DNA from: Escherichia coli
GTDB taxonomy: Bacteria > Pseudomonadota > Gammaproteobacteria > Enterobacterales > Enterobacteriaceae
Length of the DNA: 64,000 nt
Reading direction: 5' to 3' (one strand)
Assembly: GCF_044647545.1 (NCBI RefSeq)
Contig: NZ_CP172818.1
Shown: piece after piece, positions 10,553-38,924 of the stretch
How the letters are laid out: each line of letters opens with the position of its first letter
How positions within the stretch are numbered: the stretch's first letter is position 1
Notes under the pieces: model-generated
The model's database searches: none
What the model was told of the DNA's origin: nothing
Seen by the model: only the letters and a program-made list of their open reading frames with translations
Position numbers and translations under genes: made by a program

Positions 10553-10559
10553 CTGTTGA

Positions 10560-11202: not shown

Positions 11203-11207
11203 CACTC

Positions 11208-12445
11208 TCAGGCGCGTTTTGCGCGACGTTCAGCAATAAAGGTGACCAGGAAGAAAGCGCCAATCAGGTCAAAGAAGCCCATGGCGATAAACAGGGCTTA
11301 AAGCCGATTTTGTCAGCAGTAACCCCGATAATCAGGGAGAAACAGGAAACTTGCTATCGACGCGGCAGAACCGCGCATGCCGTTACAGTGGCCATCTGAC
11401 CTTTGTCGAGGATTCCACTACTAATGCGCTAAGCATGCAGGAGATGATCTGGTCAACCGAAGCCGCCTATGGAAGATAAGGACGATGGCGATATGGGTTA
11501 TCCAGAAAGGCCATCACCGCCAGCGAAACCATCAGGAATGCGCCACTGACCGATCTATGCGCAATGGAGTTCACACTGACTCAGCCCAAACAGGCGGGTG
11601 TAAAGTTTGGTCAGATAGCCGCTGGCAATACTGCCAAGATCAGCGGCGAAGGAACGGCAACCAGGCGAAAGAGTGCGATCTGCTTCAGGTCGATGCCATA
11701 GGCATCTGGACAGGTATAGCGGAACCCAGAAACTCATCACCGCCCACGCCGGTTCTGCCATAAAGGCTGGGATAGTGATACCGTAAAAGCGTTTATTTTT
11801 GCCCACGGTTTTCAGTGCGGTCAGAAAGGGTAACTTGACCGGGGAGCTTCGTTATCCTGGCGGAGCAACCAGCTTGGCTTCGCTGAAGGTCAGGATGCTT
11901 ATCCGGGTTGCGATAAAACCCACCACAGCACCACCCACAGCATCGCCAGGATGCCAGTGGCATAAATGCGCCCTGCCAGCGAATGAAGCGTGGGCAAAAT
12001 AGATAATCGGTGGGGCCAGCATGGCACCGATGGAGTCTACGTCTGCCCAGCGGCGATCGGGCGTTGCGATTTTGGAAACCATTCACCTCATAGTTTTGGG
12101 GTTTGCCGGGGTGGCCGCGGCTTCCGCACCGCCCGATAAAGAAGCGCAACAGCGCCAGATGTACCCAGTTTCCCGCCCCCGCATGCATCAGACAGGCCAG
12201 CGCCCACAGCCCCTGTGCAGATCAGAAGCCCAGTTTGAGGCCAATGACGTCAATGAGCCACCGCATAACGGTTGAAATAGGGTATAGGCGAGTTGGAAAG
12301 CACCTACAATCCAGGAATATTGTTTTGTGCAATCCCCAGGCTGCTTTTCAACTCGGCGTACACCCAGCGAATTACGTGTGATGTAGTTGACAGTAACACC
12401 GAGCAAAAAAAGGACCAGCATCCACCAACGCAGATTTTTGAACAC
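11208..12445 (-). pseudogene. Decayed MFS transporter gene (N-terminus resembles ExuT/DgoT-type anion:cation symporters), multiple frameshifts
   Basis: ORF 12188..12445 begins MFKNLRWWMLVLFLLGVTVNYITRN (MFS N-terminal TM1 pattern); a C-terminal piece ...ALFIAMGFFDLIGAFFLVTFIAERRAKRA ends at a stop at 11210..11208; the body is broken into ORFs under 135 aa in different frames. Confidence 0.5.
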
Positions 12446-12769
12446 CGGCGTGGTTTACTGGCAGTCATATCAATCGATACCCACTGATATGCACTCCACA
12501 GAATGGTATAGGGGGGCGGCAACGTCAGACGGAGTTGTCACACCACTTTTAACCTTTTGATAAATAAAGTCTTTATTGTCTGTTTTTCCATTGTTCTTGT
12601 ACTGGAAGTTGTTGTCACATTTTTACAGTAAGAGACACTAAAAGCGAAAAAGAAAGCGGGTTTTGTGCACGTTTTTCCATGCGGCCCATACATTACTGAA
12701 ATGGATTTAATGCCAGACAGAATGGGCTTTTTTTGCTCATGAAAATTCTGTCATTTCCGAATTAGAGGA

Positions 12770-13800
12770 CATCAGAAATCGGCAAAGAGCTTAAATTGCC
12801 GATATCGCCGCACGTACCGGATTATCGCCGATACGGTTTCGCGGGTGCTGCTGGCAAAGCGAATACCAGTGCACGCGCTCGCGAACAGGCGCTGGCCTGC
12901 GCGTGAGTTGGGCGCGATGGATGGCATGGCAGCAGGTCATGTTGCTGAATACAACTCATCATTTTGCGCCGCAACGCGCGTTTGACCAACGATCTGATAT
13001 CTTTTATTACCTGGTGTGATCCAGCATCAGCAAAGCGTTATCGCCCGCATGAAGTGCGGCTGCGTTACTGCGTGTTAAGGTAGTTCTACAGCTGATCCCT
13101 GGCGTGATCTGGCGGCATGAATGAAGCAGATACGCAGGCGGCGATCCTGCTGGGGATCGACGATCCGCACATCCATGATCTGGCCGCCGATCGCTAAGCC
13201 TTGCGCTGATCGACTGCTGGTGATGAACGAATGCGCCTCCCGACGATTGCGCCGGACCATCGGTTAATCGGCGTGTCTGCCGCCCGCTATCTGTTTGAAA
13301 TGGGTCACCGGGAGGTGATGAACGTTATGTGCCTGCGCTCGGCCACACTATGGAGCAGCGGTTTGCAGGGATCAAAGAATCATGGCGTCAGCATAATCTG
13401 GCCTTTCACCATGACCGTCATTTGCTGAATATCAGCAGTTTTCTCAGCGCTAAAGAAGCGGAAGAAGGTCGGAGCGCGGCCTGATGCCGCCAATGGCAAT
13501 ACGTTGCCGACGGCGTTTCTGGTCGGCGGGGATTTTTATGGCGGCGGGAACGGTAAATGCGCTACATCGTCGTGGTCTGCGCGTACCACAGGATGTCTCG
13601 GTGATGAGTATCGATGGTCTTCAATCTTGCGGCAATCGAGGATGTTCCCGACGGCTGTGACGTGCCACGCGATCAGCTAAGGGTTAAGTGGTGCAAATGT
13701 TGCAACAGCGGCTGATTCGCCGGATGTCTGCGGTGGGCTCGCTGCTGCTGCACGGACGATTAGCGGTGCGGACGCGCGGCGGTTGCCCAGGAAAAGGGAA
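12770..13800 (+). pseudogene. Decayed LacI-family transcriptional regulator gene, multiple frameshifts
   Basis: HTH-like IADIAARTGLSP continues in another frame as DTVSRVLLAK...ARELG; the C-terminal region contains ...GLRVPQDVSVMSIDG..., typical of LacI/GalR effector domains, but split across frames with stops. Confidence 0.5.
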
Positions 13801-13833
13801 CACCGCCGTGGAACGGGAAGGGCTGTACGACAA

Positions 13834-15102
13834 TCATTCCATTCCCAGCGCTCGCTTACCGTGAATGTTGAGGTCGGCAAGCGTAAAGCGTCCTTCCCAG
13901 TTTGTTTCATAGTCCTCGCGCGGGAAGTCGCCCGGCGATGCGCCTTTTTCCAGTGCGGCCTTCACCTTGTGCGCGTAGGCAAGATTTTTCTCGCACATCG
14001 GTGCCGCAGGAATGTACATCACGTTGCCCCAACCCTGTTGATTTTCAACGGGGGCAACGGAATGGATGACGTCGCAGTGCCACCAGACGGAGTCTCCGGC
14101 TTCGAGTTGTGGAATGCTGGTTAATGCCTCAATCAACAGTGGATGCCATTGCTCTGATACCGGCAACACTCTTCCGGGCGCTACGCCGCACAGTTCATCC
14201 TCCGGCACATCATCAAGCAGCGGACGTAACAGCACGTACGCCATGGCTTCAGGAATGGGCACGACGTGCAGCAGTCCCTGACCAGGCAGCATATCAGAGA
14301 GCGCTGTCCAGCCCTGGAATGTCCGAAACACGGAACATTTGGTGGTGTTGTCCACCGTGTACTCTTCAACTTCTGTACGATGTGCCGCATGCCAGGGATC
14401 ATATTGCGCCAGATTGCCATTAAAGACGTTGGCGAAAACGCGCTGATACGCTGGAAGCAGCCAGCGTTCCAGTGCCCCGGAGTCGGTATGCGCTCCGAGA
14501 CCTTTGGAGGCCGTTCCGGGCGGACGGCGGCGGATACGGTCAGGGTAGATGACGCTCACATCCGGGTTAAACCATTGCTTTCCATCACTTTCAAATGTCC
14601 ACAGACGATTGAGAAACGACTGCGCATTCGCCATTTCTTCACTCTGGCGGGCCTGCATTTGCGCCTGCGACCAGTAGATGGGGTAAATCTCGGGACGTGA
14701 AGCGCTGAGCGTCCCGAAGAAATTATCGCCGGGGCCTTTGTAGACCTCATCAAAGCGGTTGCGGTCCAGATAGTCCAGCATCGACTGATCCCAGCCTAGC
14801 GCTTGTTCGCGGGGGAAATGGCCTTTTATCACCGCACAACCGCGACGTTTAATCTGTTCGCGTTGCTCTGCAGTAACATGACCTGCTTTGATATCGGCAT
14901 AAGACAGCACCGGCCAGACTGCATCGCCCTGTGCTTTGAGTGCGTTGATTTCAGCCACTCGCGTGGCAATGTCATCGCTTAGCTGATTAAAGATCTGCTG
15001 GACGTCGCCAAGCTGCGCCCGCAGCGCGTGCTTCATCTGACGGATAGCTGCTTTGTGATCGGCAGGCAATGTGTTGCTGGTAAAAGTAGAAGCCATAACC
15101 AC
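13834..15102 (-). CDS. ybiU: DUF1479 family protein
   Basis: 422-aa intact ORF matching YbiU; the true start may be a few codons inside (MASTFTS...). Confidence 0.9.
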   Translation of the reverse strand: MVMASTFTSNTLPADHKAAIRQMKHALRAQLGDVQQIFNQLSDDIATRVAEINALKAQGDAVWPVLSYADIKAGHVTAEQREQIKRRGCAVIKGHFPREQALGWDQSMLDYLDRNRFDEVYKGPGDNFFGTLSASRPEIYPIYWSQAQMQARQSEEMANAQSFLNRLWTFESDGKQWFNPDVSVIYPDRIRRRPPGTASKGLGAHTDSGALERWLLPAYQRVFANVFNGNLAQYDPWHAAHRTEVEEYTVDNTTKCSVFRTFQGWTALSDMLPGQGLLHVVPIPEAMAYVLLRPLLDDVPEDELCGVAPGRVLPVSEQWHPLLIEALTSIPQLEAGDSVWWHCDVIHSVAPVENQQGWGNVMYIPAAPMCEKNLAYAHKVKAALEKGASPGDFPREDYETNWEGRFTLADLNIHGKRALGME

Positions 15103-20339: not shown

Positions 20340-20491
20340 CCGGACGTTCTGCATCCTCATCAATTGCTGATAACGTTGTGGAGTGCACCAAGCTTCCGCG
20401 CCTGAAATTCGCCCGAACTAGGCAGATAAGGTTACGCCGATTGGGTCTGAGAAAATTATCTGCCGCGACTTATCAGGCCTGGGGCTGGCAG

Positions 20492-23645: not shown

Positions 23646-25503
23646 TGAACTTGATGCCGGTGATGTGCTGGCGGTTGAAAATCTGAATATTGCCTTTATG
23701 CAGGACCAGCAGAAAATAGCTGCGGTCCGCAATCTCTCTTTTAGCCTGCAACGCGGTGAGACGCTGGCAATTGTTGGCGAATCCGGCTCCGGTAAGTCAG
23801 TGACTGCGCTGGCATTGATGCGTCTGTTGGAACAGGCGGGCGGTTTAGTACAGTGCGATAAAATGCTGTTGCGGCGGCGCAGTCGCGAAGTGATTGAACT
23901 TAGCGAGCAGAGCGCTGCACAAATGCGCCATGTGCGCGGTGCGGATATGGCGATGATATTTCAGGAACCGATGACATCGCTGAACCCGGTATTTACTGTG
24001 GGTGAACAGATTGCCGAATCAATTCGTCTGCATCAGAACGCCAGTCGTGAAGAAGCGATGGTCGAGGCGAAGCGGATGCTGGATCAGGTACGCATTCCGG
24101 AGGCACAAACCATTCTTTCACGTTATCCGCATCAACTCTCTGGCGGGATGCGCCAGCGAGTGATGATTGCGATGGCGCTGTCATGCCGCCCGGCGGTGCT
24201 GATTGCCGATGAGCCAACCACCGCGCTGGATGTCACTATTCAGGCGCAGATCCTGCAATTAATCAAAGTATTGCAAAAAGAGATGTCGATGGGCGTTATC
24301 TTTATCACTCACGATATGGGCGTGGTGGCAGAGATTGCCGATCGGGTACTGGTGATGTATCAGGGCGAGGCGGTGGAAACGGGTAGCGTCGAACAGATTT
24401 TTCATGCACCGCAACATCCTTACACCCGTGCGCTGTTAGCTGCTGTTCCGCAACTTGGTGCGATGAAAGGGTTAGATTATCCCCGACGTTTCCCATTGAT
24501 ATCGCTTGAACATCCAGCGAAACAGGAACCACCCATCGAGCAGAAAACGGTGGTGGATGGCGAACCTGTTTTACGGGTGCGTAATCTGGTCACCCGTTTC
24601 CCTTTGCGCAGCGGTTTGTTGAATCGCGTAACGCGGGAAGTGCATGCCGTTGAGAAAGTCAGTTTTGATCTCTGGCCTGGCGAAACGCTATCGCTGGTGG
24701 GCGAGTCTGGCAGCGGTAAATCCACTACCGGGCGGGCGTTGCTGCGCCTGGTCGAATCGCAGGGCGGCGAAATTATCTTTAACGGTCAGCGAATCGATAC
24801 CTTGTCATCCGGTAAACTTCAGGCATTGCGCCGCGATATTCAGTTTATTTTTCAGGACCCTTACGCTTCGCTGGACCCACGTCAGACCATCGGTGATTCG
24901 ATTATCGAACCGCTGCGCGTACACGGTTTATTGCCAGGTAAAGAAGCGGCTGCACGCGTTGCGTGGTTGCTGGAGCGCGTGGGCCTGTTACCGGAACATG
25001 CCTGGCGTTACCCGCATGAGTTTTCCGGCGGTCAGCGCCAGCGCATCTGCATTGCTCGCGCGTTGGCATTGAATCCAAAAGTGATCATTGCCGACGAAGC
25101 CGTCTCGGCGCTGGATGTATCTATTCGCGGGCAGATTATCAACTTGTTGCTCGATCTCCAGCGTGATTTCGGCATTGCGTATCTGTTTATCTCCCACGAT
25201 ATGGCCGTGGTAGAGCGGATTAGTCATCGTGTGGCGGTGATGTATCTCGGACAAATTGTTGAAATTGGTCCACGGCGCGCGGTCTTTGAAAATCCGCAGC
25301 ATCCTTATACGCGTAAATTACTGGCGGCAGTTCCGGTCGCTGAACCGTCCCGACAACGACCGCAGCGTGTACTGCTGTCGGACGATCTTCCCAGCAATAT
25401 TCATCTGCGTGGTGAAGAGGTTGTAGCCGTCTCGTTGCAATGCGTCGGGCCGGGGCATTACGTCGCACAACCACAATCAGAATACGCATTCATGCGTAGA
25501 TAA
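23632..25503 (+). CDS. gsiA: Glutathione ABC importer ATP-binding protein (two fused ABC domains)
   Basis: The track ORF 23524..25503 is over-extended; the recognised GsiA N-terminus (M)PHSDELDAG follows a TTG at 23632, overlapping the iaaA 3' end; two Walker A motifs (GESGSGKS, twice). Confidence 0.9.
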
Positions 25504-25522
25504 CATTCAGGCGGAGAATAAA

Positions 25523-27061
25523 ATGGCAAGAGCTGTACACCGTAGTGGGTTAGTGGCGCTGGGCATTGCGACAGCGTTGATGGCATCTTGTGCATTCGCT
25601 GCCAAAGATGTGGTGGTGGCGGTAGGATCGAACTTCACCACGCTCGATCCATATGACGCGAATGACACGTTATCTCAGGCCGTAGCGAAATCGTTTTACC
25701 AGGGGCTGTTCGGTCTCGATAAAGAGATGAAACTGAAAAACGTGCTGGCGGAGAGTTATACCGTTTCCGATGACGGCCTTACTTACACCGTGAAACTGCG
25801 GGAAGGAATTAAATTCCAGGATGGAACCGACTTCAACGCAGCGGCGGTAAAAGCGAATCTGGACCGGGCCAGCGATCCGGCGAATCATCTTAAACGCTAC
25901 AACCTGTATAAGAATATTGCCAAAACGGAAGCGATCGATCCGACAACGGTAAAGATTACCCTCAAACAGCCGTTCTCAGCGTTTATTAATATTCTTGCCC
26001 ATCCGGCGACCGCGATGATTTCACCGGCAGCGCTGGAAAAATATGGCAAGGAGATTGGTTTTCATCCGGTGGGAACCGGGCCGTATGAACTGGATACCTG
26101 GAATCAGACCGATTTTGTGAAGGTGAAAAAATTCGCGGGTTACTGGCAGCCAGGATTGCCCAAACTGGACAGCATAACCTGGCGTCCGGTGGCGGATAAC
26201 AACACCCGCGCGGCCATGCTGCAAACCGGTGAAGCGCAGTTTGCTTTCCCCATTCCCTACGAGCAGGCCGCACTGCTGGAGAAAAACAAAAATATCGAGT
26301 TGATGGCCAGTCCGTCAATTATGCAGCGTTATATCAGTATGAACGTGACGCAAAAGCCGTTCGATAACCCGAAGGTCCGTGAGGCGCTGAATTACGCCAT
26401 TAACCGCCCGGCGCTGGTGAAAGTGGCCTTCGCGGGTTATGCAACGCCAGCTACTGGTGTGGTACCGCCGAGTATCGCCTACGCGCAAAGTTATAAACCG
26501 TGGCCTTACGATCCGGCGAAAGCGCGCGAATTACTGAAAGAGGCGGGATATCCCAACGGTTTCAGTACCACGCTGTGGTCGTCACATAACCACAGCACTG
26601 CGCAGAAAGTGCTGCAATTTACCCAGCAGCAGTTAGCGCAGGTCGGGATTAAAGCCCAGGTGACTGCGATGGATGCCGGACAGCGGGCGGCAGAAGTTGA
26701 AGGTAAAGGGCAAAAAGAGAGCGGCGTGCGGATGTTCTACACTGGCTGGTCGGCTTCAACCGGCGAAGCAGACTGGGCTCTATCGCCGCTGTTTGCCTCG
26801 CAGAACTGGCCACCGACGCTGTTTAATACCGCGTTTTACAGCAATAAACAGGTGGATGACTTCCTGGCTCAGGCATTGAAAACTAATGATCCGGCGGAAA
26901 AGACCCGTTTATATAAGGCGGCGCAGGATATCATCTGGCAAGAGTCGCCGTGGATCCCGCTGGTGGTAGAAAAACTGGTGTCGGCACACAGTAAAAACCT
27001 GACCGGTTTTTGGATCATGCCAGACACCGGCTTCAGCTTTGAAGACGCGGATTTGCAATAA
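25523..27061 (+). CDS. gsiB: Glutathione ABC importer periplasmic binding protein
   Basis: 512-aa ORF with signal peptide; family 5 solute-binding protein; matches GsiB. Confidence 0.95.
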
Positions 27062-27078
27062 GCAACGCAGGGAGTGGA

Positions 27079-27999
27079 ATGCTTAATTACGTTATCAAAC
27101 GCTTGCTGGGGTTGATTCCGACGCTGTTTATCGTCTCGGTGCTGGTGTTTTTATTTGTCCATATGCTGCCCGGCGATCCGGCGCGATTGATTGCCGGGCC
27201 CGAAGCTGATGCGCAGGTTATAGAACTGGTGCGTCAGCAGCTGGGGTTGGATCAGCCGCTGTATCACCAGTTCTGGCACTATATCAGCAATGCTGTGCAG
27301 GGGGATTTTGGCCTGGCGATGGTGTCGCGTCGTCCGGTTGGCGATGAGATTGCCAGCCGCTTTATGCCAACGCTGTGGCTGACCATAACCAGTATGGTCT
27401 GGGCGGTGATATTTGGTATGGCGGCGGGAATTATCGCCGCCGTCTGGCGTAATCGTTGGCCGGATCGATTGAGTATGACCATTGCGGTGTCGGGGATCTC
27501 GTTTCCGGCATTTGCTCTGGGGATGCTTTTAATTCAGGTATTCTCCGTTGAACTGGGCTGGCTGCCTACCGTGGGAGCAGACAGTTGGCAGCACTACATT
27601 TTACCCACCCTGACGCTCGGCGCGGCAGTGGCAGCCGTGATGGCGCGCTTTACCCGCGCGTCGTTTGTCGACGTTTTAAGCGAAGATTATATGCGTACCG
27701 CGAGGGCGAAAGGGGTGAGCGAAACCTGGGTTGTCCTCAAGCACGGGCTACGCAACGCGATGATCCCGGTAGTGACCATGATGGGCTTACAGTTTGGCTT
27801 TTTGCTCGGTGGTTCCATCGTGGTGGAGAAAGTTTTCAACTGGCCCGGACTTGGACGCTTACTCGTTGACTCCGTAGAAATGCGCGATTACCCGGTGATT
27901 CAGGCGGAAATTCTGCTTTTCTCGCTGGAATTTATTCTTATCAACTTAGTGGTGGATGTGCTTTACGCCGCCATTAACCCGGCTATCAGGTACAAGTAA
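27079..27999 (+). CDS. gsiC: Glutathione ABC importer permease
   Basis: 306-aa DppB-like permease ORF; operon position. Confidence 0.95.
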
Positions 28000-28001
28000 G
28001 G

Positions 28002-28913
28002 ATGCGACTATTTAACTGGCGACGTCAGGCGGTGTTAAACGCCATGCCACTGGTCAAACCTGACCAGGTACGTACACCGTGGCATGAATTCTGGCGACGA
28101 TTTCGCCGTCAGCATATGGCGATGACCGCCGCATTGTTCGTTATTTTATTGATTGTGGTGGCCATTTTTGCACGCTGGATTGCTCCCTATGACGCCGAAA
28201 ATTATTTTGATTATGACAATCTGAATAACGGACCTTCTTTGCAGCACTGGTTTGGCGTCGATTCACTGGGGCGTGACATTTTCAGCCGTGTCCTGGTTGG
28301 TGCGCAAATCTCGCTGGCGGCGGGCGTGTTTGCCGTGTTTATCGGTGCGGCGATCGGGACGTTGCTGGGCTTGCTGGCTGGATATTATGAAGGCTGGTGG
28401 GATCGGCTGATCATGCGCATTTGCGATGTGCTGTTTGCCTTCCCGGGTATTTTACTGGCGATCGCTGTTGTTGCGGTGTTGGGAAGCGGCATTGCTAACG
28501 TGATTATCGCAGTCGCCATTTTTTCCATCCCCGCGTTTGCCCGACTGGTGCGCGGCAACACGCTGGTGTTGAAACAGCAAACCTTTATTGAGTCAGCACG
28601 CAGTATTGGTGCCAGCGATATGACCATTTTATTGCGTCATATCCTGCCTGGGACCGTCTCTTCTATCGTGGTGTTTTTCACCATGCGCATTGGTACCTCG
28701 ATTATCTCTGCCGCCAGCCTGTCATTTCTCGGCCTCGGTGCGCAGCCGCCGACACCAGAGTGGGGAGCAATGCTCAATGAGGCACGAGCGGATATGGTTA
28801 TCGCGCCGCATGTCGCTGTTTTTCCGGCCCTGGCTATTTTTCTGACCGTACTGGCGTTCAATTTGTTGGGCGATGGTTTACGCGATGCGCTGGATCCGAA
28901 AATTAAAGGATAG
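28002..28913 (+). CDS. gsiD: Glutathione ABC importer permease
   Basis: 303-aa DppC-like permease ORF; operon position. Confidence 0.95.
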
Positions 28914-29089
28914 TTACGTTTGAATATTGCTTGAAAGGGTAATCACCTCACAGGAAATTATTGCCCTAAGCAAGTGTTGTAACTTTCTGCTGATTTTGTA
29001 GAATCGGGTAATTTGGTTAAAAAGCCGCAGCAAGGGACTATTTTGCAGCGGCACAGCGTTCAGACAGTTATTTTGTTAAATGTATTAAC

Positions 29090-31438
29090 ATGCTGAGTTT
29101 ATACGAAAAGATAAAGATAAGGCTGATAATTTTATTTTTATTGGCAGCACTGTCATTTATTGGTCTTTTTTTCATCATTAACTATCAACTGGTATCGGAA
29201 CGCGCGGTAAAACGTGCCGATAGCCGCTTTGAACTTATTCAGAAAAACGTTGGCTATTTCTTTAAAGATATTGAACGTTCGGCCCTGACATTAAAGGACT
29301 CACTGTATTTATTAAAAAATACAGAGGAGATTCAACGCGCCGTAATTCTGAAAATGGAAATGATGCCATTTTTAGACTCGGTGGGACTGGTACTTGATGA
29401 TAATAAATATTATCTCTTTTCGCGGAGGGCGAATGATAAAATCGTTGTTTATCATCAGGAACAAGTAAATGGACCGCTTGTCGACGAGTCAGGGCGGGTT
29501 ATTTTTGCCGATTTTAACCCATCGAAACGACCGTGGTCGGTGGCTTCAGATGACTCTAACAACAGCTGGAATCCGGCATACAATTGCTTTGATCGTCCGG
29601 GTAAAAAATGTATCTCTTTTACGCTACACATCAACGGCAAAGATCACGATTTGTTAGCGGTGGATAAAATTCATGTCGATTTAAACTGGCGATATCTGAA
29701 CGAGTATCTTGATCAAATCAGCGCTAATGATGAAGTTCTATTTTTAAAGCAAGGTCATGAGATCATTGCTAAGAATCAACTCGCTCGTGAAAAATTGATT
29801 ATTTATAATAGCGAAGGTAATTATAATATTATTGATTCTGTCGATACGGAATATATTGAAAAAACATCAGCGGTGCCAAACAACGCATTATTCGAAATCT
29901 ATTTTTATTATCCTGGTGGTAATTTATTGAACGCATCAGATAAACTTTTTTATCTGCCGTTTGCTTTCATTATTATCGTATTGCTGGTGGTTTATTTAAT
30001 GACCACTCGAGTTTTCCGTCGGCAATTTTCTGAAATGACCGAACTGGTTAATACGCTGGCGTTTTTGCCTGACTCTACGGATCAAATCGAGGCCCTGAAG
30101 ATTCGTGAAGGCGATGCGAAAGAGATTATCAGTATCAAAAATTCGATCGCGGAAATGAAAGATGCTGAAATTGAACGGGCAAATAAATTGCTCTCGCTGA
30201 TCTCTTACGATCAGGAAAGCGGTTTTATTAAAAATATGGCGATTATTGAGTCCAACAATAATCAGTATCTGGCTGTGGGGATCATCAAACTGTGTGGTCT
30301 GGAAGCTGTGGAAGCGGTGTTTGGTGTTGATGAACGCAATAAAATCGTCAGGAAATTGTGTCAGCGAATTGCCGAGAAATATGCGCAATGCTGCGATATC
30401 GTGACATTTAATGCCGATCTCTATTTACTCCTGTGCCGGGAAAATGTACAGACGTTTACCCGTAAGATAGCGACGGTAAACGATTTTGACAGCAGTTTTG
30501 GCTACCGCAATCTGCGCATCCATAAGTCTGCTATTTGTGAACCTTTGCAGGGGGAAAACGCCTGGAGTTACGCAGAAAAGCTGAAACTGGCGATTTCCAG
30601 TATCCGCAACCATATGTTCTCAGAGTTTATTTTCTGTGATGATGCGAAACTCAACGAAATAGAAGAGAATATCTGGATTGCGCGTAATATTCGCCATGCA
30701 ATGGAAATTGGCGAACTATTCCTCGTCTATCAACCGATCGTTGATATTAACACCCGCGCCATTCTGGGCGCGGAGGCGTTGTGCCGTTGGGTGTCTGCGG
30801 AGCGGGGGATCATTTCACCGCTAAAGTTCATTACCATTGCTGAAGATATCGGGTTTATCAATGAGCTGGGTTATCAGATTATTAAAACCGCGATGGGTGA
30901 ATTCAGACATTTTAGTCAGCGTGCGGTCCTGAAGGACGGTTTCTTACTGCATATTAATGTTTCGCCCTGGCAGTTAAACGAACCACACTTTCATGAGCGT
31001 TTTACCACCATCATGGAAGAAAATGGCCTGAAGGCGAACAGCCTCTGTGTTGAGATCACTGAAACCGTGATTGAGCGAATTAATGAACATTTTTATCTCA
31101 ATATTGAACAACTGCGTAAACAAGGGGTACGGATATCGATTGATGACTTTGGCACCGGTTTGTCAAACCTGAAACGTTTTTATGAAATTAATCCAGATAG
31201 CATAAAAGTGGACTCACAATTTACCGGCGATATTTTCGGTACTGCGGGAAAAATTGTGCGCATTATTTTCGATCTGGCACGCTATAACCGGATCCCGGTG
31301 ATTGCGGAAGGCGTAGAGAGCGAAGACGTTGCGCGCGAATTAATCAAATTAGGATGTGTTCAGGCTCAGGGGTATCTGTACCAGAAACCCATGCCGTTCT
31401 CCGCCTGGGATAAAAGTGGAAAATTAGTAAAAGAGTAG
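29090..31438 (+). CDS. pdeI: Membrane-anchored c-di-GMP phosphodiesterase (EAL domain) with large periplasmic N-terminal region
   Basis: 782-aa ORF with an N-terminal TM segment and a C-terminal EAL domain (…[10 protein letters not shown]…, …[10 protein letters not shown]…); matches YliE/PdeI; locally AT-rich. Confidence 0.9.
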
Positions 31439-31445
31439 TTTACGT

Positions 31446-32774
31446 ATGTCCAGAATCAATAAGTTCGTACTTACAGTCAGTCTGCTGATTTTTATCATGA
31501 TTTCAGCAGTTGCCTGCGGGATCTACACTCAAATGGTAAAGGAACGGGTGTATGGCCTGAAACAGTCCGTTATTGATACTGCTTTTGCGGTGGCAAATAT
31601 TGCTGAATATCGGCGTAGTGTGGCAATTGATCTGATCAACACGCTAAATCCTACGGAGGAACAGCTGTTGGTTGGCTTACGCACAGCTTACGCCGACTCG
31701 CTTTCACCCTCTTATTTGTACGATGTCGGTCCTTATCTGATTTCCAGTGACGAATGTATTCAGGTAAAGGAGTTCGAGAAAAATTATTGTGCAGATATTA
31801 TGCAGGTTGTGAAGTATCGACATGTCAAAAATACAGGGTTTATCTCTTTTGATGGTAAAACCTTCGTCTATTACCTCTATCCGGTAACTCACAATCGTAG
31901 TCTGATATTTTTGCTTGGTCTGGAACGTTTTTCTTTACTGTCAAAATCGCTGGCGATGGATAGCGAGAACCTGATGTTCTCCCTGTTTAAGAACGGTAAA
32001 CCGGTGACCGGTGATGAATATAACGCTAAAAACGCCATCTTCACCGTTTCGGAAGCAATGGAGCACTTCTCCTATTTGCCGACCGGATTGTACGTATTTG
32101 CGTATAAAAAAGACGTTTATTTTCAGGTATGTACATTGATTATTTTCTTTGCCGCATTGGTGGCAGTGATATCGGGTGCCAGTTGCCTCTATCTGGTACG
32201 CAGAGTGATTAATCGTGGTATTGTGGAGAAAGAAGCCATTATTAATAACCATTTTGAACGCGTCCTGGATGGCGGGCTTTTCTTTTCGGCTGCCGATGTC
32301 AAAAAACTCTACAGTATGTATAACTCGGCATTCCTGGACGATCTGACCAAAGCAATGGGCAGAAAATCCTTTGATGAAGATTTAAAAGCCCTGCCGGAAA
32401 AAGGCGGCTATTTGTGCCTGTTTGACGTCGATAAATTCAAAAACATTAACGACACCTTCGGTCATTTGCTGGGCGATGAAGTGTTGATGAAAGTGGTGAA
32501 AATCCTTAAATCACAGATCCCGGTAGATAAAGGTAAAGTCTACCGCTTCGGCGGTGACGAATTTGCGGTGATTTATACTGGCGGCACGCTGGAAGAGTTG
32601 CTATCGATTCTAAAAGAAATCGTTCATTTCCAGGTGGGAAGCATTAATTTAAGTACCAGTATCGGTGTAGCGCATTCAAATGAATGTCCTACCGTCGAAC
32701 GCTTGAAAATGCTGGCGGATGAGCGGCTGTATAAGAGTAAGAAAAACGGCAGGGCACAGATTAGCTGGCAGTAA
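31446..32774 (+). CDS. dgcI: Membrane-anchored diguanylate cyclase (GGDEF domain)
   Basis: 442-aa ORF with a GGDEF active-site motif ([12 protein letters not shown]); matches YliF/DgcI. Confidence 0.9.
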
Positions 32775-32779
32775 TTAGA

Positions 32780-33700
32780 ATATTATACCCCTTAATCAAG
32801 GGTACTAATGAATTGGTAAATCATTTCAAACATTTTACTTTGCAAAAACTTCCGGCCCTTTTATTCCAATGTATTCAAAAAACGCAATGCCGGCCCCTTC
32901 TTTTTTTTTCTTTTCCTCCCCTTTTCTAAAACTTTTTTTTTTAAATTCCCTTTTGTTCCAAAACCGGGTGGATGCCCCGTCCGGCGGGCCTTTTTCTCTT
33001 CTCCCCCCTTTGTTTTTGTTTTGCTTATGGGCCGCACTCTCGGGTTTGTGACTTAAGGGGAAGGACAAACTTCCAAACAACAAACAGACCCACATTTCTT
33101 TCCTTTCTTTTCAATTTAATTTTTTTTTTTTTCTCCCAAAAAAAAAACAAATTCAAAAAAAATCTTTTTTTATTGCTAAAGGCCAGAAATGCATTTGCCA
33201 TTTTTTTGTAGGCCGCCAGTTCATCATCTTCGATTTCTTTGGTTCCTTTACTACTTAGACCACTCTTGGACCAACCATCATAAAAAAACACATGATTTGC
33301 TGATTTAAAAAAAATAATTTTTTTGCCTCCCCCTCTTTCTTTTTGAGGGGGAAATTTTTTTTAAGAACACCCCAACCTAAATCACCCTCCCATATGCCCT
33401 CCATCACTTCTCCAGCGCAAGCCATAAAAATTTTATATTAAAAACCAAGTTTTTTTTGTTTTGCGGAATCTTTCCCTTATACACACCCATACACCCATCT
33501 TTTGTTATTGTTTATATTATAAAAATTATTCTTTTTTAAAAAAAATTGAAAAAAAAAATTTATTTTGGAAAAAAAAAGGAGGGTTGCCCGAAGGTTTTTT
33601 TTTTTTTGATTTATGGGGGGGATTTTTGGGAAGGAAAGGAAAGGGGGGAGGGAAGGAGAGGAAGAAAAAAAAAAAATTAATTTAGATTTCTGCCTTAAGA
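32780..33700. other. Low-complexity, homopolymer-rich non-coding tract between convergent dgcI and rimO; origin unclear (possible assembly artefact or foreign/synthetic insert)
   Basis: Runs of at least 10 T, at least 10 A and 7 G, plus GA-rich and CT-rich blocks (e.g. ggaaggaaaggaaaggggggagggaaggagagg); only short Lys/Phe/Gly-rich ORFs; unlike the surrounding E. coli sequence. Confidence 0.6.
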
Positions 33701-33704
33701 TTAA

Positions 33705-35030
33705 TTAAACCCGGCTACCCCACAAATCGTACTCATCGGCGTGCTCGACTTTCACACGCAGGATATCACCCGGCTTAACGTTGGTTTCACCATTGAGATA
33801 AACCGCGCCGTCGATTTCCGGTGCATCTGCCATGCTGCGACCAATCGCACCTTCTTCGTCCACTTCGTCGATAATCACCAGAATTTCACGGCCCACTTTC
33901 TCTTGCAGGCGCTCGGCGGAAATCTGCTGCTGCAACTGCATGAAACGGTTCCAGCGTTCTTCTTTCACTTCTTCCGGAACCTGGTCAGGCAGGGCATTGG
34001 CGTCTGCACCTTCAACCGGGCTGTATTTAAAGCAGCCAACGCGATCCAGACGTGCTTCTTTCAGGAAGTCGAGTAGCATCTGGAAATCTTCTTCCGTCTC
34101 GCCAGGGAAACCGACAATAAAGGTTGAGCGTAGGGTCAGTTCCGGGCAGATTTCGCGCCACTGTTTGATGCGCGCCAGTTGGCGATCTACAGAACCCGGA
34201 CGCTTCATCAGTTTGAGAATGCGCGGGCTGGCGTGCTGCAACGGAATGTCCAGATACGGCAGGATTTTGCCTTCTGCCATCAGTGGGATGACGTCGTCCA
34301 CATGCGGATAAGGGTAAACGTAGTGCAGACGTGTCCAGATCCCCAGTTTCGATAACTGTTCGCACAGGCTGACCATGCTGGTTTTTACCGGCTCGCCGTT
34401 GTGGAAGCCAGTACGATGTTTAACATCAACGCCATAGGCGGAAGTATCCTGCGAGATCACCAGAATCTCTTTAACGCCCGCATCAACCAGACGTTTCGCT
34501 TCACTTAACACTTCGCCAATAGGACGGCTCACCAGGTCGCCGCGCATAGACGGAATAATGCAGAAGGTGCAGCGGTGATTACAGCCTTCAGAAATTTTCA
34601 GATAGGCATAATGACGCGGCGTCAGTTTCACGCCTTGTTCTGGCACCAGGCTCAGGAATGGGTTGTGTTTCGGTTTTGGCACGTAGTGATGAACGTGCTC
34701 CAGAACCTGCTCATAGCTATGAGGCCCGGTGATTTCCAGCACTTTCGGGTGGACTTCGCGGATCTGATCTTCTTTTGCCCCCAGACAACCGGTCACAATT
34801 ACCTTGCCGTTTTCATTCAACGCTTCACCAATGGCTTCCAGTGATTCTTGTACCGCGCTGTCAATAAAGCCGCAGGTGTTGACGATCACCATGTCCGCAT
34901 CGTCATAGCTCGGTACCACGTCATAACCTTCAGTGCGTAGTTCGGTGAGAATACGCTCTGAATCGACAAGGTTTTTCGGACAGCCAAGGGAAACAAAGCC
35001 GATTTTCGGCTGGGGAGTTACTTTGCTCAT
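33705..35030 (-). CDS. rimO: Ribosomal protein uS12 methylthiotransferase (radical SAM, MiaB family)
   Basis: 441-aa ORF with an N-terminal MTTase Cys triad and a radical SAM CxxxCxxC (CNHRCTFC); matches RimO (YliG). Confidence 0.95.
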
Positions 35031-35242
35031 AGCTTAAAAAATATTCAGTTACAGGAAAGGTCAGGGCAGGGATTCTACAGAGTTCTGGATAAAATTTGTA
35101 TCGCAATCTCATACGCTGGCGGAGGCGAAGGAAATGTAAATTTTGTTAATTCGGCGTGAAGAATTGATCCTGGACAGCATTTTGCTCAAAAAATAGCCAT
35201 ACTATTTAATTGCAACAAGGCTGGAAAGAGGAGGATCGAAGT

Positions 35243-35626
35243 ATGTTCGTTGACAGACAGCGAATCGATCTGCTGAACCGGTTGATCGACGCACGCGTTG
35301 ACCTCGCCGCATACGTGCAACTGAGGAAGGCAAAAGGATACATGTCCGTCAGCGAAAGCAATCATCTACGAGATAACTTTTTTAAACTGAATCGCGAACT
35401 GCACGATAAATCGCTGCGGTTGAATCTTCATCTGGATCAGGAAGAGTGGAGTGCTCTTCATCATGCTGAAGAAGCATTAGCGACAGCCGCAGTATGTTTG
35501 ATGAGTGGGCACCATGATTGCCCGACTGTTATTACCGTCAACGCCGATAAGCTTGAAAATTGTCTGATGAGCTTAACGCTGAGTATCCAGAGCCTGCAGA
35601 AGCACGCCATGCTTGAGAAGGCCTGA
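35243..35626 (+). CDS. bssR: Biofilm regulator BssR
   Basis: ORF 35210..35626; the recognised BssR sequence begins MFVDRQRIDLLNRLIDARVDLAAYVQL at 35243 (127 aa). Confidence 0.9.
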   Translation: MFVDRQRIDLLNRLIDARVDLAAYVQLRKAKGYMSVSESNHLRDNFFKLNRELHDKSLRLNLHLDQEEWSALHHAEEALATAAVCLMSGHHDCPTVITVNADKLENCLMSLTLSIQSLQKHAMLEKA

Positions 35627-35629
35627 AAA

Positions 35630-35672
35630 CTAAGGGGGAGAAAGCGTCTCCCCCTTCATGTTTAAGTTTTTG
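35630..35672 (+). terminator. Rho-independent terminator after bssR
   Basis: aagggggagaaagcgtctcccccttcatgtttaagttttt: G/C stem followed by a T-rich tail. Confidence 0.65.
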
Positions 35673-35736
35673 TAAAAATGAATTTGTTCTCTCCTCCACT
35701 GACTACGCTTTAAGCCAGAGTCAATCCGGAGGCGTT

Positions 35737-36852
35737 ATGCATCGACAATTCTTTTTCCTTGTGCCCCTTATTTGTCTTTCTTCCGCTCTCTGGGCGGCTC
35801 CTGCAACGGTAAATGTCGAAGTACTGCAAGACAAACTCGACCATCCCTGGGCGCTGGCCTTTTTACCCGACAATCACGGTATGTTAATCACTCTGCGCGG
35901 CGGCGAGTTGCGTCACTGGCAAGCAGGAAAAGGATTATCTGCGCCGCTTTCCGGAGTGCCGGACGTTTGGGCGCACGGGCAGGGCGGCCTGCTGGACGTG
36001 GTTTTAGCGCCTGATTTTGCTCAGTCTCGCCGCATCTGGTTAAGTTATTCCGAAGTAGGCGATGATGGCAAAGCCGGAACTGCTGTGGGTTATGGCCGCT
36101 TAAGTGATGATCTCTCAAAAGTGACCGACTTCCGCACCGTCTTTCGTCAGATGCCAAAACTGTCTACCGGCAACCATTTTGGCGGGCGGATGGTATTCGA
36201 CGGTAAAGGTTATCTTTTGATTGCTCTGGGCGAAAACAATCAGCGCCCGACGGCGCAGGATCTGGATAAATTACAGGGCAAACTGGTGCGTCTGACCGAC
36301 CAGGGCGAAATCCCGGATGATAATCCTTTTATAAAGGAATCCGGTGCACGCGCCGAGATCTGGTCTTATGGCATTCGTAATCCACAAGGAATGGCGATGA
36401 ATCCGTGGAGTAAAGCACTATGGCTGAATGAACATGGCCCGCGCGGTGGTGATGAAATTAATATCCCGCAAAAAGGCAAAAACTACGGCTGGCCGCTGGC
36501 AACCTGGGGAATCAACTATTCGGGCTTTAAGATACCGGAAGCGAAAGGGAAGATCGTCGCCGGGACCGAGCAACCTGTTTTTTACTGGAAAGATTCGCCC
36601 GCCGTGAGCGGCATGGCCTTCTATAACAGCGATAAATTCCCCCAGTGGCAGCAAAAATTATTTATTGGCGCGCTGAAAGATAAAGATGTCATTGTGATGA
36701 GCGTCAACGGCGACAAAGTGACAGAAGATGGCCGTATTTTAACGGACAGAGGGCAGCGAATTCGTGATGTTCGCACTGGACCCGACGGTTATTTATACGT
36801 TCTCACCGACGAGTCCAGTGGGGAATTACTTAAAGTTAGCCCACGCAATTAG
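35737..36852 (+). CDS. yliI: Soluble aldose sugar dehydrogenase (PQQ-dependent, beta-propeller)
   Basis: 371-aa ORF with signal peptide; matches YliI. Confidence 0.9.
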
Positions 36853-37475
36853 CTAACGGGAATCATCACCACTTTGCGCACTGCGGGGCGTTCAGTGAGT
36901 TGCTGATACCAGCGTTGCAGATTTGGACGCGGTGTCCAGGTCAGGCCAACATTAAACAAATTGTAGATGAACGGTGCGATAGCGATATCGCCCACACCAA
37001 ACTCGTCGCCGGAGAACCATTTTACTTTTGCCAGTTCCGCATCGAGCAGGGCAAACAGGGCGTCGCACTCTTTACAACTGGCATCAATGGCGGCCTGATC
37101 GCGCTCTTCCGGTGGTGTTCTGACTAATCCCATCAGGATCCCGCGATGGGCATTACTGAGCGTCTGGTTTGCCCAGTCCATCCATTTTTCTGCTTCCGCA
37201 CGACGTGCCGGTGAGTCGATCCACAGGCGTTTTTGCCCGTACTGTGCCGCCAGATAGCGGACAATGGCGTTTGATTCCCAAAGAATGAGATCACTTTCGT
37301 CGTCACGCAACAATGGCACCAGCCCGTTAGGGTTCATCGCCAGAAAATCAGCATCGTGATTTATCCCAAACTCACGGCCCGCGAGAATTTGCTCATAAGG
37401 TAGTTCCAGTTCTTCGAGCGTCAGCAATACTTTTTTTACGTTGGTTGAATTATTCCGACCCCACAGCGTAATCAT
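36849..37475 (-). CDS. gstB: Glutathione S-transferase
   Basis: ORF 36849..37481; the recognised GstB N-terminus [16 protein letters not shown] begins at 37475 (208 aa). Confidence 0.9.
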
Positions 37476-37721
37476 ACTCACCCCTTTTCCGACAGGCAGC
37501 CACAGGCTGAACAGGACTTTGATGGTGAAGTAAAGTTAACTTTTAAGCAACAGCTGGCAAAAAAATGACAACAGAAGCAGCGAAGCGGCAGGATATTGCA
37601 TAAACTTTAAAAACTTTACCAACTTACGGTTTCTTTAAGTTTGTGTGTGCGTTATTAATCACCGAACTTATCATACGGCGATATAACGTATTTTTTTTGA
37701 ATGGATACTCGGGTGGCATTT

Positions 37722-38924
37722 ATGACGCAATACTCCTCTCTCCTTCGTGGTCTTGCAGCGGGTTCTGCATTTTTATTCCTTTTTGCCCCAACGGCATTCG
37801 CGGCCGAACAAACCGTTGAAGCGCCGAGCGTGGATGCGCGTGCATGGATTTTAATGGATTACGCCAGCGGTAAAGTGCTGGCAGAAGGCAATGCGGATGA
37901 GAAACTGGATCCCGCGAGCCTGACTAAAATCATGACCAGCTATGTGGTTGGGCAGGCGCTTAAGGCCGATAAGATTAAACTCACCGATATGGTGACGGTC
38001 GGTAAAGATGCCTGGGCGACGGGAAATCCGGCACTGCGTGGTTCATCGGTAATGTTCCTCAAACCGGGCGATCAGGTTTCGGTGGCAGACTTGAACAAAG
38101 GTGTGATTATCCAGTCCGGTAATGACGCCTGTATTGCGCTGGCCGATTACGTTGCCGGGAGCCAGGAGTCATTTATTGGTTTGATGAATGGTTATGCCAA
38201 AAAACTGGGTCTGACCAACACTACCTTCCAGACGGTGCACGGTCTGGATGCGCCGGGGCAGTTCAGTACCGCGCGCGATATGGCATTGCTGGGTAAAGCA
38301 TTAATCCACGATGTGCCGGAAGAGTATGCCATTCATAAAGAGAAAGAGTTCACCTTCAACAAAATTCGTCAGCCTAACCGTAACCGTCTGCTGTGGAGCA
38401 GCAATCTGAATGTTGATGGCATGAAGACAGGAACCACTGCAGGCGCGGGATATAATCTGGTTGCTTCGGCTACCCAGGGTGATATGCGTTTAATCTCCGT
38501 AGTGCTGGGGGCGAAAACTGACCGTATCCGTTTTAATGAGTCTGAGAAATTATTGACCTGGGGTTTCCGCTTCTTTGAAACCGTGACGCCAATTAAACCT
38601 GATGCCACCTTTGTGACTCAGCGCGTCTGGTTTGGTGATAAGAGCGAAGTGAATCTCGGGGCAGGCGAAGCGGGCTCAGTGACCATACCGCGTGGGCAGC
38701 TGAAAAACCTGAAAGCGAGCTACACGTTAACGGAACCGCAGCTTACCGCACCGCTGAAAAAAGGTCAGGTTGTCGGGACCATTGATTTCCAGCTTAACGG
38801 TAAATCCATTGAGCAGCGTCCGCTGATCGTGATGGAAAATGTGGAAGAGGGCGGATTCTTTGGTCGGATGTGGGATTTCGTGATGATGAAATTCCATCAG
38901 TGGTTCGGCAGCTGGTTCTCTTAA
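37722..38924 (+). CDS. dacC: D-alanyl-D-alanine carboxypeptidase PBP6
   Basis: ORF 37701..38924; the recognised start is [14 protein letters not shown] at 37722; signal peptide and the SxxK active-site motif (SLTKIM) are present. Confidence 0.95.

Follow-up and report, generated by a model that had tools for sequence, protein, structure and literature searches.

Sequence analysis of the AT-rich pdeI–dgcI gene pair of Escherichia coli and of the tract that follows it

The standard catalogue of GGDEF/EAL proteins in Escherichia coli has 29 members, among them the products of pdeI and dgcI. The GGDEF domains of two GGDEF-EAL tandem phosphodiesterases, DosP of E. coli and PdeA (CC3396) of Caulobacter, are non-catalytic, and that of PdeA binds GTP. 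In strain CFT073, the EAL motifs of PdeI (YliE) were tabulated with the same conclusion as is reached here, and DgcI (YliF) was listed with a consensus A-site and a degenerate I-site (PMC3484386). DgcI of Shigella is a strong cyclase, giving the highest c-di-GMP of four diguanylate cyclases in a GG-dependent manner (PMC11327459), and in K-12 the DgcI protein is undetectable and its gene barely transcribed (PMC5635695). Overexpression of PdeI confers resistance to phage N4, which is c-di-GMP-dependent, as does that of other phosphodiesterases (PMC7553319). Pairs of YliE/YliF homologues located by the bcsA2-4 cellulose-synthase clusters, plasmid-borne or transferred, are the subject of a preprint (10.1101/2025.05.09.653004). 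The domain architectures, the low expression, the temperature response and the plasmid-borne paralogues by bcs clusters have all been published, and pdeI–dgcI matters little as a discovery; all the biology described here is already known.

The locus analysed here lies in a 64 kb stretch of E. coli DNA, referred to below as the window, and closely resembles that of K-12, where PdeI is YliE (b0833) and DgcI is YliF (b0834). The genes, their order and their neighbours (gsiD upstream, rimO convergent downstream) are alike, as are the domain architecture and the catalytic motifs, and at the DNA level the locus is 97.6% identical to a K-12-like genome. Unlike in K-12, the alleles are ST648-type. In K-12, dgcI and rimO are separated by no more than 46 bp, which include a terminator hairpin, whereas the ST648-type lineage carries a toxin–antitoxin cassette at this position, which appears corrupted in this window. 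We are confident that the pair is an intact, ordinary and already known pair of E. coli core-genome genes, and this confidence is meant for the best explanation as a whole, comprising the gene pair, its activities, its origin and the corrupted tract. The present analysis directly shows which genes these are, their domain architecture, the integrity of their motifs, and their composition and distribution; the enzyme activities of PdeI and DgcI are taken from the literature and not from this sequence analysis.

Identity and neighbourhood of the gene pair

The genes and intergenic regions are as follows.

28914–29089, no strand assigned: gsiD–pdeI intergenic region, 176 bp, 38.1% GC, presumed promoter region of pdeI
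29090–31438, plus strand: pdeI (yliE), putative inner-membrane sensor and c-di-GMP phosphodiesterase, 782 aa (ORF, Pfam, 100% DNA identity)
31446–32774, plus strand: dgcI (yliF), putative inner-membrane sensor and diguanylate cyclase, 442 aa (ORF, Pfam, DNA identity)
32775–33704, minus strand: probable corrupted copy of a RelE/HTH toxin–antitoxin cassette, both frames destroyed (75.8% identity to the ~998 bp cassette)
33705–35030, minus strand: rimO, core gene convergent with dgcI (ORF and genome comparison)
35243–35626, plus strand: bssR (yliH), biofilm regulator (ORF and genome comparison)

The initial annotation had placed pdeI, directly followed by dgcI, at 29090–32774, and bssR just past rimO. 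Both statements hold: the two ORFs lie exactly at these coordinates, the segment shows 100% DNA identity over 3684 bp to the annotated pdeI and dgcI genes of ST648-type genomes, and bssR follows rimO at the positions given above. Of 5426 complete E. coli genomes, all but one (5425) contain the pair.

The spacer between the pdeI stop codon and dgcI is 7 nt; it measures 9 nt in E. fergusonii, and in two paralogous pairs it is 4 and 2 nt. Because of this tight coupling, we propose that pdeI and dgcI are co-transcribed, probably as one transcription unit. The gsiD–pdeI intergenic region contains a single sigma-70-like match (28977–29004, plus strand); however, a consensus scan of 28700–35300 returned 10 promoter-like sites compared to 12.6 expected from shuffles, and this match is therefore no evidence of function. 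Terminator consensus sites over the same interval were likewise no commoner than in shuffles.

The tract between dgcI and rimO

The dgcI–rimO site is an insertion hotspot, the contents of which differ among K-12, ST648-type strains and E. albertii. A cassette of ~998 bp, as in NZ_CP023815 at positions 164790–165787, occupies it in 1138 of the 5426 complete genomes. The reference copy has two ORFs with Pfam matches, one for a toxin of the RelE family (128 aa) and one for an HTH antitoxin (109 aa). In the window, the site is filled by a low-complexity sequence of 930 bp and 34.1% GC that begins directly 3' of dgcI. The initial annotation had noted an anomalous low-complexity tract at this position; the position (32775–33704) is correct, but the sequence is not a biological low-complexity element. 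Its closest counterpart is the ST648-type type II cassette (RelE, PF06296, and HTH-XRE; WP_000539521 / WP_001280945), which occupies the same dgcI–rimO position and matches the tract with 75.8% full-length identity and perfect local islands. In comparison with this cassette, both ORFs here are broken, and the sequence is smeared into homopolymers and 70 bp shorter. No intact overlapping toxin and antitoxin ORFs were detected in the tract: tblastn returned only fragments, interrupted by stop codons and frameshifts, and 10–22 stops occur in the reverse frames.

The tract is most likely a sequence artefact, that is, a technically corrupted rendering of the RelE/HTH cassette that related strains carry intact, because corruption of a similar kind affects three other places in the window, at 10554–13950, about 20400 and 61248–61565, all of them accessory or repetitive DNA. 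Real biology, in the form of a cassette that decayed or was hypermutated in this strain, has in its favour that toxin–antitoxin cassettes do decay and that the contents of the hotspot vary, but we consider it extremely improbable given the pattern of the differences. The flanks of the tract are 100% identical to those of strains with an intact cassette, yet the 930 bp between them carry 221 substitutions, 70 deletions and no insertions relative to it. Among the substitutions, 181 (82%) copy the adjacent base; homopolymer runs of at least 7 increase from 2 in the reference cassette to 18; and perfect 150-bp islands alternate with zones at 30–55% identity. Outside the tract and the three other spots, the window is 99.99–100% identical. 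We know of no mutational process that would give such a pattern. Readings of the tract and of the three other corrupted spots as biology should be discounted.

Base composition, distribution and origin

The initial annotation had described the module as visibly more AT-rich than its flanks, and computation bears this out. The GC content of the module is 42.1% (pdeI 41.4%, dgcI 43.3%, first 320 codons of pdeI 37.2%), compared to a mean of 51.5% (sd 2.0, minimum 46.5) in the remainder of the 64 kb, taken as 1041 non-overlapping windows of 3685 bp, and the lowest-GC 3685-bp windows of the entire 64 kb lie in the module. The initial annotation had also raised the possibility of silencing by H-NS. 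The H-NS high-affinity motif, which we take to be TCGATAAATT, matched 8 sites in the module with up to 2 mismatches, compared to 6.1 ± 2.4 in shuffles, indicating nothing beyond base composition. A search of the accessible literature for H-NS ChIP or hns-mutant evidence on yliE/yliF/pdeI/dgcI returned none.

E. albertii, E. whittamii and E. fergusonii share the gene order gsiD–pdeI–dgcI–rimO, and all Escherichia genomes examined have the pair at this fixed locus. Among the matches listed, no full-length relatives came from outside Escherichia. A search with the CHASE9 N-terminal region recovered Escherichia proteins only, mostly fragments, and distant GAPES2-GGDEF relatives with 25–26% identity are located on contigs of 1.4–1.5 kb without genomic context.

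The pairs linked to bcsA2-4 show the same order of a CHASE9-EAL gene followed by a GAPES2-GGDEF gene, 2–4 nt apart, with EALCR and GGDEF intact and an AT-rich composition. Their identity to PdeI and DgcI is 30–39% for the EAL protein and 34–43% for the GGDEF protein. They have a GC content of 30–36% and are followed by GT2+PilZ (bcsA-like) and BcsB genes, one of them lying near Rep3 and integrase genes, whereas no synthase gene adjoins the chromosomal pair. The inserts close to rimO in E. whittamii and E. albertii contain no bcs-like genes but unrelated DNA, namely a lacY/lacI/GH42 island and an ORF with HEAT repeats.

An older horizontal acquisition, as put forward in the initial annotation, agrees with these observations in part. 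It is favoured by the low GC content, the confinement to Escherichia among the matches listed, the fixed locus and the more AT-rich paralogues, but it left no mobility signature: there are no tRNA genes in 25000–38000, no direct repeats bracketing the module and no mobility ORFs at the module. Because the distribution is restricted, the Escherichia locus fixed and the paralogues on plasmid-like or transferred DNA more AT-rich, an ancient acquisition of pdeI–dgcI is plausible, the case for it being circumstantial; we infer it from composition and distribution alone. Vertically inherited genes under weak selection, in which low expression and fast evolution allowed a mutational AT bias to accumulate, might also become AT-rich. 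The barely transcribed dgcI and undetectable DgcI of K-12 (PMC5635695) would fit such a history, as would the lack of an integrase, tRNA or flanking repeats and the rapid divergence of PdeI, whose amino acid identity to the E. albertii and E. whittamii proteins is 88–93% compared to 97–99.8% for the neighbouring GsiD and RimO. We nevertheless regard weak selection as unlikely. The GC content is lowered not only at codon position 3 but also at positions 1 and 2, so the amino acid composition itself is of AT type; the GC content of the paralogous pairs, which lie on plasmid-like or transferred DNA, is lower still (30–36%); and the family is seemingly restricted to Escherichia, the matches listed including no vertical counterparts from elsewhere. 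Under an ancient acquisition, the low GC would reflect the AT-rich origin of the whole family of CHASE9-EAL/GAPES2-GGDEF gene pairs, of which this pair would have entered, or arisen in, the Escherichia lineage before the species split, and of which the paralogous copies appear to travel with bcsAB-like cellulose-synthase genes.

Domains and activities of PdeI and DgcI

The domains of the two proteins are as follows.

29192–29539, plus strand: CHASE9 domain of PdeI, aa 35–150 (Pfam PF17153, 210.6 bits)
30182–30649, plus strand: predicted degenerate GGDEF-fold domain of PdeI, ~aa 365–520, with NADLY at aa 441–445 (alignment, AlphaFold model, Foldseek)
30683–31390, plus strand: EAL domain of PdeI, aa 532–767 (Pfam PF00563; EALCR562, N623, EITE655, DDFGTG685, KVD706, EGVE740, QG760)
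31521–32132, plus strand: GAPES2 periplasmic domain of DgcI, aa 26–229 (Pfam PF17156, 466.1 bits)
32328–32756, plus strand: GGDEF domain of DgcI, aa 295–437 (Pfam PF00990; GD343, RFGGDEF367–373, KKNGR432)

Hydropathy analysis of PdeI revealed hydrophobic segments at aa 7–36 and 282–310, which flank a periplasmic sensor region of ~245 residues with CHASE9 as its first part; in DgcI, segments at aa 4–31 and 223–252 flank the GAPES2 domain. Both domains score above the Pfam gathering threshold and lie between the two transmembrane (TM) segments of their protein, giving the architectures TM–CHASE9–TM–GGDEF-like–EAL for PdeI and TM–GAPES2–TM–GGDEF for DgcI. No similarity between the two periplasmic domains, as might go with a shared ligand, was detected by BLASTP.

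In PdeI, PF00563 is matched over the full profile (aa 532–767) with 233.3 bits (cut-off 31.3). All of the catalytic, metal-binding and substrate-binding residues of EAL domains (ExLxR, N, ExxE, the DDFGTG loop 6, KxD, EGVE and QG) are present, as EALCR562, NVSP623, EITE655, DDFGTG685, KVD706, EGVE740 and QGY760, and they align with active EAL structures; judged by its sequence, the EAL domain is catalytically competent. The GGDEF domain of DgcI scores 87.9 bits with PF00990 (cut-off 23.8) and 90.8 bits with TIGR00254 (cut-off 37.4), and its active-site residues are complete (the DxD...K..ND stretch at 327, GD343, RFGGDEF367–373 and KKNGR432). An RxxD I-site five residues upstream of GGDEF is absent, the sole RxxD being at aa 272, outside the domain; such a site is common in GGDEF cyclases but not defining. 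The initial annotation had deduced opposing c-di-GMP activities from the motifs GAEALCRW in PdeI and RFGGDEF in DgcI, and had assigned both proteins N-terminal membrane/periplasmic sensor regions. The sensor regions are as described above, EALCR and GGDEF were found at aa 562 and aa 369, neither motif proved degenerate on checking, and opposing activities agree with most experiments, PMC11651652 dissenting.

PdeI contains a further domain, situated between its membrane part and the EAL domain, that was overlooked in the first reading. An alignment with 44 GGDEF-EAL proteins places NADLY (aa 441–445) at the GGDEF position and shows that both Asp residues of DxD, the guanine-binding Asn and Asp, the Arg preceding GGDEF, and the K..R pair are lost. 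The domain gave no Pfam match at E ≤ 10, no match to a custom GGDEF HMM built from 72 sequences and no phmmer match in the PDB; the NCBIfam full-length models for GepA and DosP are the only sequence profiles that reach into this region. The AlphaFold2 model of PdeI (mean pLDDT 86.8) nevertheless shows a GGDEF fold preceding the EAL domain, and a Foldseek search with predicted residues 311–782 retrieved the tandems of DosP, PA0575, MorA, PA0861 and LapD (E 1e-29 to 1e-20, 427–469 aligned columns). Sequence and model together indicate a GGDEF fold that is catalytically dead and cannot be a canonical cyclase. PdeI thus resembles DosP (PdeO) of E. coli, in which the GGDEF active site is lost and the EAL domain intact. 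It differs from the DosP/PdeA/LapD-type proteins in that its GGDEF domain is too divergent for any sequence profile, and in that its input is a periplasmic sensor region starting with CHASE9 and not a PAS or receiver domain.

With a periplasmic sensor beginning with CHASE9, a cytoplasmic helical linker, a dead GGDEF fold and a competent EAL domain, PdeI most likely hydrolyses c-di-GMP to pGpG, whereas DgcI would synthesize c-di-GMP from GTP through its competent GGDEF domain, with a periplasmic GAPES2 sensor and no RxxD product-inhibition site. As antagonists, the two would make and break c-di-GMP in response to periplasmic cues; under laboratory conditions, they are expressed at very low levels. 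PdeI has, however, recently been termed a synthetase, on the grounds that its level correlates positively with a c-di-GMP reporter and that its overexpression raises c-di-GMP 11-fold by LC-MS/MS, an effect abolished by G412S (PMC11651652). That PdeI is in effect a c-di-GMP producer by way of its divergent GGDEF domain, so that the pair would not be opposing, is improbable in our view: NADLY stands in place of GGDEF, the DxD, Asn, Asp, Arg and K..R residues are all substituted, no GGDEF HMM is matched, the EAL domain is fully intact, and overexpression phenocopies other phosphodiesterases in the N4 assay (PMC7553319). The history of G412S, a residue within the degenerate GGDEF-fold domain, also argues against it. 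As cited in PMC11651652 and PMC12890032, this change originally came to light as a motility suppressor of a pdeH deletion, accompanied by lowered c-di-GMP, and it would therefore activate the phosphodiesterase. Since the GGDEF domain is dead, the EAL domain intact, the N4 phenotype that of a phosphodiesterase and G412S of this origin, the rise in c-di-GMP on PdeI overexpression is more likely indirect. Because G412S is an activating suppressor, we further suggest that PdeI as a phosphodiesterase may be gated by its dead GGDEF domain together with a periplasmic signal.

A bolder reading, which we hold to be rather improbable, is that the chromosomal pair is the orphaned regulatory half of an ancestral, acquired CHASE9-EAL/GAPES2-GGDEF/bcsA-like/bcsB-like synthase cassette and still acts as a local signalling unit, with the dead GGDEF fold of PdeI pairing with or gating DgcI. 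If true, this would explain the PdeI-linked rise in c-di-GMP and its loss with G412S. It has recently been claimed that PdeI acts as a c-di-GMP synthetase and is linked to the formation of persisters. The dead GGDEF domain of PdeI bears on this claim, and its sequence and fold point to a testable indirect mechanism, such as a dependence on dgcI.

Gene content and base composition of the pdeI–dgcI module

The window is Escherichia coli chromosome, and the ORF listing placed the following features in and around the pdeI–dgcI module.

Features of the pdeI–dgcI region (ORF listing, window positions)
25523–28913: gsiB, gsiC, gsiD
29090–31438, plus strand: pdeI (yliE), 782-aa ORF
31446–32774, plus strand: dgcI (yliF), 442-aa ORF
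32775–33704: 930-bp stretch between dgcI and rimO with no credible gene
33705–35030, minus strand: rimO
Beyond rimO, in this order: bssR, yliI, gstB

By megablast, 29090–32774 was detected in 5425 of 5426 complete E. coli genomes, with 100% identity over 3684 bp to a group including IMT16316, ECONIH1 and strain 1428, where the matching genes are annotated pdeI and dgcI; most other E. coli genomes, K-12-like ones included, are 97–98% identical. The gene calls and coordinates of the initial annotation were thus exact. Module coverage is below 80% in ~45 of the 5425 genomes, indicating that the pair is occasionally disrupted or lost, and IS1 splits dgcI in NZ_OW967966.1 (hit H1/H51) and pdeI in NZ_CP047594.1 (hit H70), one genome each. 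A P2-like prophage lies beside rcdA in IMT16316 but is absent at window ~44984, which runs straight into ybjL as strain 1428 does.

The computed GC content of the module is 42.1% (pdeI 41.4%, dgcI 43.3%) compared with 52–54% in the flanking genes, bearing out the AT-richness that had been claimed for it. Values are 37.2% for the first 320 codons of pdeI and 38.1% for the spacer upstream of it; the mean over 1041 non-overlapping 3685-bp windows from the rest of the 64 kb is 51.5% (sd 2.0, minimum 46.5). GC is lowered at codon positions 1, 2 and 3 alike. For the suggested H-NS silencing, no H-NS data on pdeI or dgcI were found in the searchable literature, and an H-NS motif scan of the module gave no enrichment over base composition. 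Two circumstantial points bear on silencing: in K-12, dgcI is transcribed at a very low level and its protein cannot be detected (PMC5635695), and in CFT073 expression of both genes is higher at 37 °C than at 23 °C (PMC12890032).

The tract after dgcI and other corrupted spots

As had been noticed, the module is directly followed by an anomalous low-complexity tract (930 bp). The corresponding spacer in K-12 is only 46 bp with a hairpin (L004, a K-12-like locus, 7186–7231), whereas 1138 of 5426 E. coli genomes, including every genome 100% identical to the window across pdeI–dgcI, carry a ~998-bp cassette encoding a RelE-family toxin (PF06296) and an HTH antitoxin. In E. albertii (L006, 8316–9029) the spacer holds a 237-aa HEAT-repeat ORF. 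The dgcI–rimO spacer (window 32775–33704) is an insertion hotspot. In the neighbouring rimO–bssR spacer, the E. whittamii locus (L007, 9830–14689) contains a ~5 kb island with a LacY-like symporter, a LacI-family regulator and a GH42 beta-galactosidase, as identified by ORF listing and Pfam for L007 alone; in L005, another of the loci compared, an insertion of similar length sits at a similar place, and the island is absent from the window.

The tract aligns to the cassette end to end at 75.8% identity, with 221 substitutions, 70 missing bases and no extra ones. In 181 of the 221 substitutions the new base matches an adjacent one; the tract has 18 homopolymer runs of at least 7 against 2 in the cassette, and same-base steps make up 51% rather than 31%. 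Perfectly matching islands are interspersed with zones of 30–55% identity, both the toxin and antitoxin ORFs are destroyed, and the damage begins at the dgcI stop codon and stops ~16 bp short of the rimO stop. Comparison of the whole window with its close relatives, the ST648-type genomes, revealed similar damage at three further spots, all in accessory or repetitive DNA.

Further corrupted spots (window positions)
10554–13950: LacI/MFS/GH31 island between ybiT and ybiU; relative to IMT16316, 144 substitutions, 96 missing and 37 extra bases, ~1.9 kb absent
~20395–20470: REP/BIME-type palindromic element between fsa and moeB; garbled by ~30 small changes (deletions and substitutions) relative to IMT16316, flanks identical
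61248–61565: almost pure A/T low-complexity garble of 318 bp, where strain 1428 (NZ_CP023366) has ~2.5 kb including a pentapeptide-repeat pseudogene; flanks 99.96–99.99% identical

The remainder of the aligned window is 99.99–100% identical to ST648-type genomes. We know of no biological process that produces localised 24% divergence with homopolymer smearing in an otherwise identical genome, and on these grounds we conclude that the tract and the three spots are most likely a technical artefact of assembly, polishing or other processing. The low-complexity tracts in the window should be read as corrupted sequence, not as biology; this warning is one useful by-product of the analysis.

Distribution and origin

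The DgcI scan covered one genome per species for 100,044 species. Among the matches listed, full-length relatives occur only in E. coli, E. albertii and E. whittamii; the others match the GGDEF domain only, at ≤40% identity, save two tiny fragments 98–99% identical to E. coli DgcI, in a Collinsella MAG (L008, 1198 bp) and a Nocardioides malaquae assembly (L009, 249 bp), which are almost certainly E. coli contamination. The order gsiC-gsiD-pdeI-dgcI-rimO is kept in those three species and in E. fergusonii (PdeI 69%, DgcI 78% identical), and pdeI is also found in E. marmotae. Searches with the PdeI N-terminal region retrieved Escherichia proteins only, and those with the DgcI GAPES2 region yielded just 35 proteins from a set of 1.84 billion cluster representatives. 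PdeI evolves faster (88–93% identity) than GsiD and RimO (97–99.8%).

Two CHASE9-EAL paralogues (39% and 30% identical to PdeI) are each followed after 2–4 nt by a GAPES2-GGDEF gene and next by a GT2+PilZ (bcsA-like) gene, with a bcsB gene also following at the E. fergusonii paralogous locus. The other pair lies on a 29.7-kb E. coli contig, adjoining Rep3 and integrase genes; GC of the paralogous pairs is 30–36%. A preprint from the Römling laboratory (10.1101/2025.05.09.653004) already reports precisely this arrangement of YliE/YliF-like pairs and bcs genes and likewise notes the restriction to Escherichia. The low GC, the apparently Escherichia-limited distribution and the AT-rich paralogues on plasmid-like or transferred DNA make it plausible that the two-gene module was acquired anciently, before the Escherichia species split. 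The older horizontal acquisition proposed initially is to that extent plausible, although a search of the chromosomal module for an integrase, tRNA or flanking repeats found none.

Domain architecture and activities of PdeI and DgcI

Pfam domains of PdeI and DgcI
PdeI aa 35–150: CHASE9
PdeI aa 532–767: EAL (233 bits)
DgcI aa 26–229: GAPES2
DgcI aa 295–437: GGDEF (88 bits)

Strongly hydrophobic segments lie either side of the sensor domain in PdeI (7–36 and 282–310) and DgcI (4–31 and 223–252), which places both proteins in the inner membrane with their sensors in the periplasm. The PdeI EAL domain, alignable full-length with solved active EAL domains, has all residue groups of an active enzyme (EALCR562, N623, EITE655, DDFGTG685, KVD706, EGVE740, QG760). 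DgcI carries [10 protein letters not shown]327, GD343, RFGGDEF and KKNGR432 when aligned with DosC, DgcZ and PleD; an RxxD I-site upstream of GGDEF is absent. The motifs, checked for degeneracy, are thus intact, in agreement with the residue table for CFT073 YliE/YliF (PMC3484386).

The initial annotation overlooked PdeI ~aa 365–520, between TM2 and EAL. This region gave no match with Pfam at E ≤ 10, a custom GGDEF HMM (72 sequences) or phmmer against PDB. In an alignment of PdeI 311–782 to 52 homologues, of which 44 are canonical GGDEF-EAL proteins, G412 lines up with the conserved Gly in GH..GD and NADLY (441–445) occupies the GGDEF position, while the DxD metal ligands, the guanine-binding Asn and Asp, the pre-GGDEF Arg and the K..R pair are replaced. 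An AlphaFold2 model from this alignment was confident (mean pLDDT 86.8), and its best Foldseek matches were the GGDEF-EAL tandems DosP, PA0575, MorA, PA0861 and LapD (427–469 of 472 residues aligned). Together these indicate that PdeI is a GGDEF-fold/EAL tandem whose GGDEF domain cannot cyclise by the canonical mechanism, which agrees with the 'xGGDEF' label in the same preprint.

Co-transcription is favoured by the 7-nt pdeI–dgcI spacer, which has AAGAG ~10 nt ahead of the dgcI ATG, and by spacers just as short in the E. fergusonii orthologue and the two paralogue lineages. DgcI would make c-di-GMP; among four cyclases, its Shigella orthologue produced the highest c-di-GMP, in a GG-dependent manner (PMC11327459). 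PdeI most likely degrades it, since overexpression confers resistance to the c-di-GMP-requiring phage N4, as with five other PDEs (PMC7553319), and G412S is a motility suppressor of a pdeH deletion with reduced c-di-GMP (as cited in PMC11651652 and PMC12890032). The opposing activities originally assigned fit these data and the intact motifs, but not a report that PdeI overexpression raises c-di-GMP 11-fold, an effect lost with G412S, in which PdeI is named a synthetase (PMC11651652). Given the dead GGDEF active site, PdeI is unlikely to be a direct synthetase; the effect is more likely indirect and may run via DgcI. The phenotypes reported are modest: yliE is linked to biofilm colonisation resistance (PMC3646849), yliF to adherence (PMC3484386) and dgcI to complex effects on curli (PMC12713406).

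Overall, the initial observation is confirmed and its interpretation essentially right. The pdeI–dgcI biology in the window is already known and its discovery value low; a useful by-product is the argument for a catalytically dead GGDEF-like domain in PdeI.
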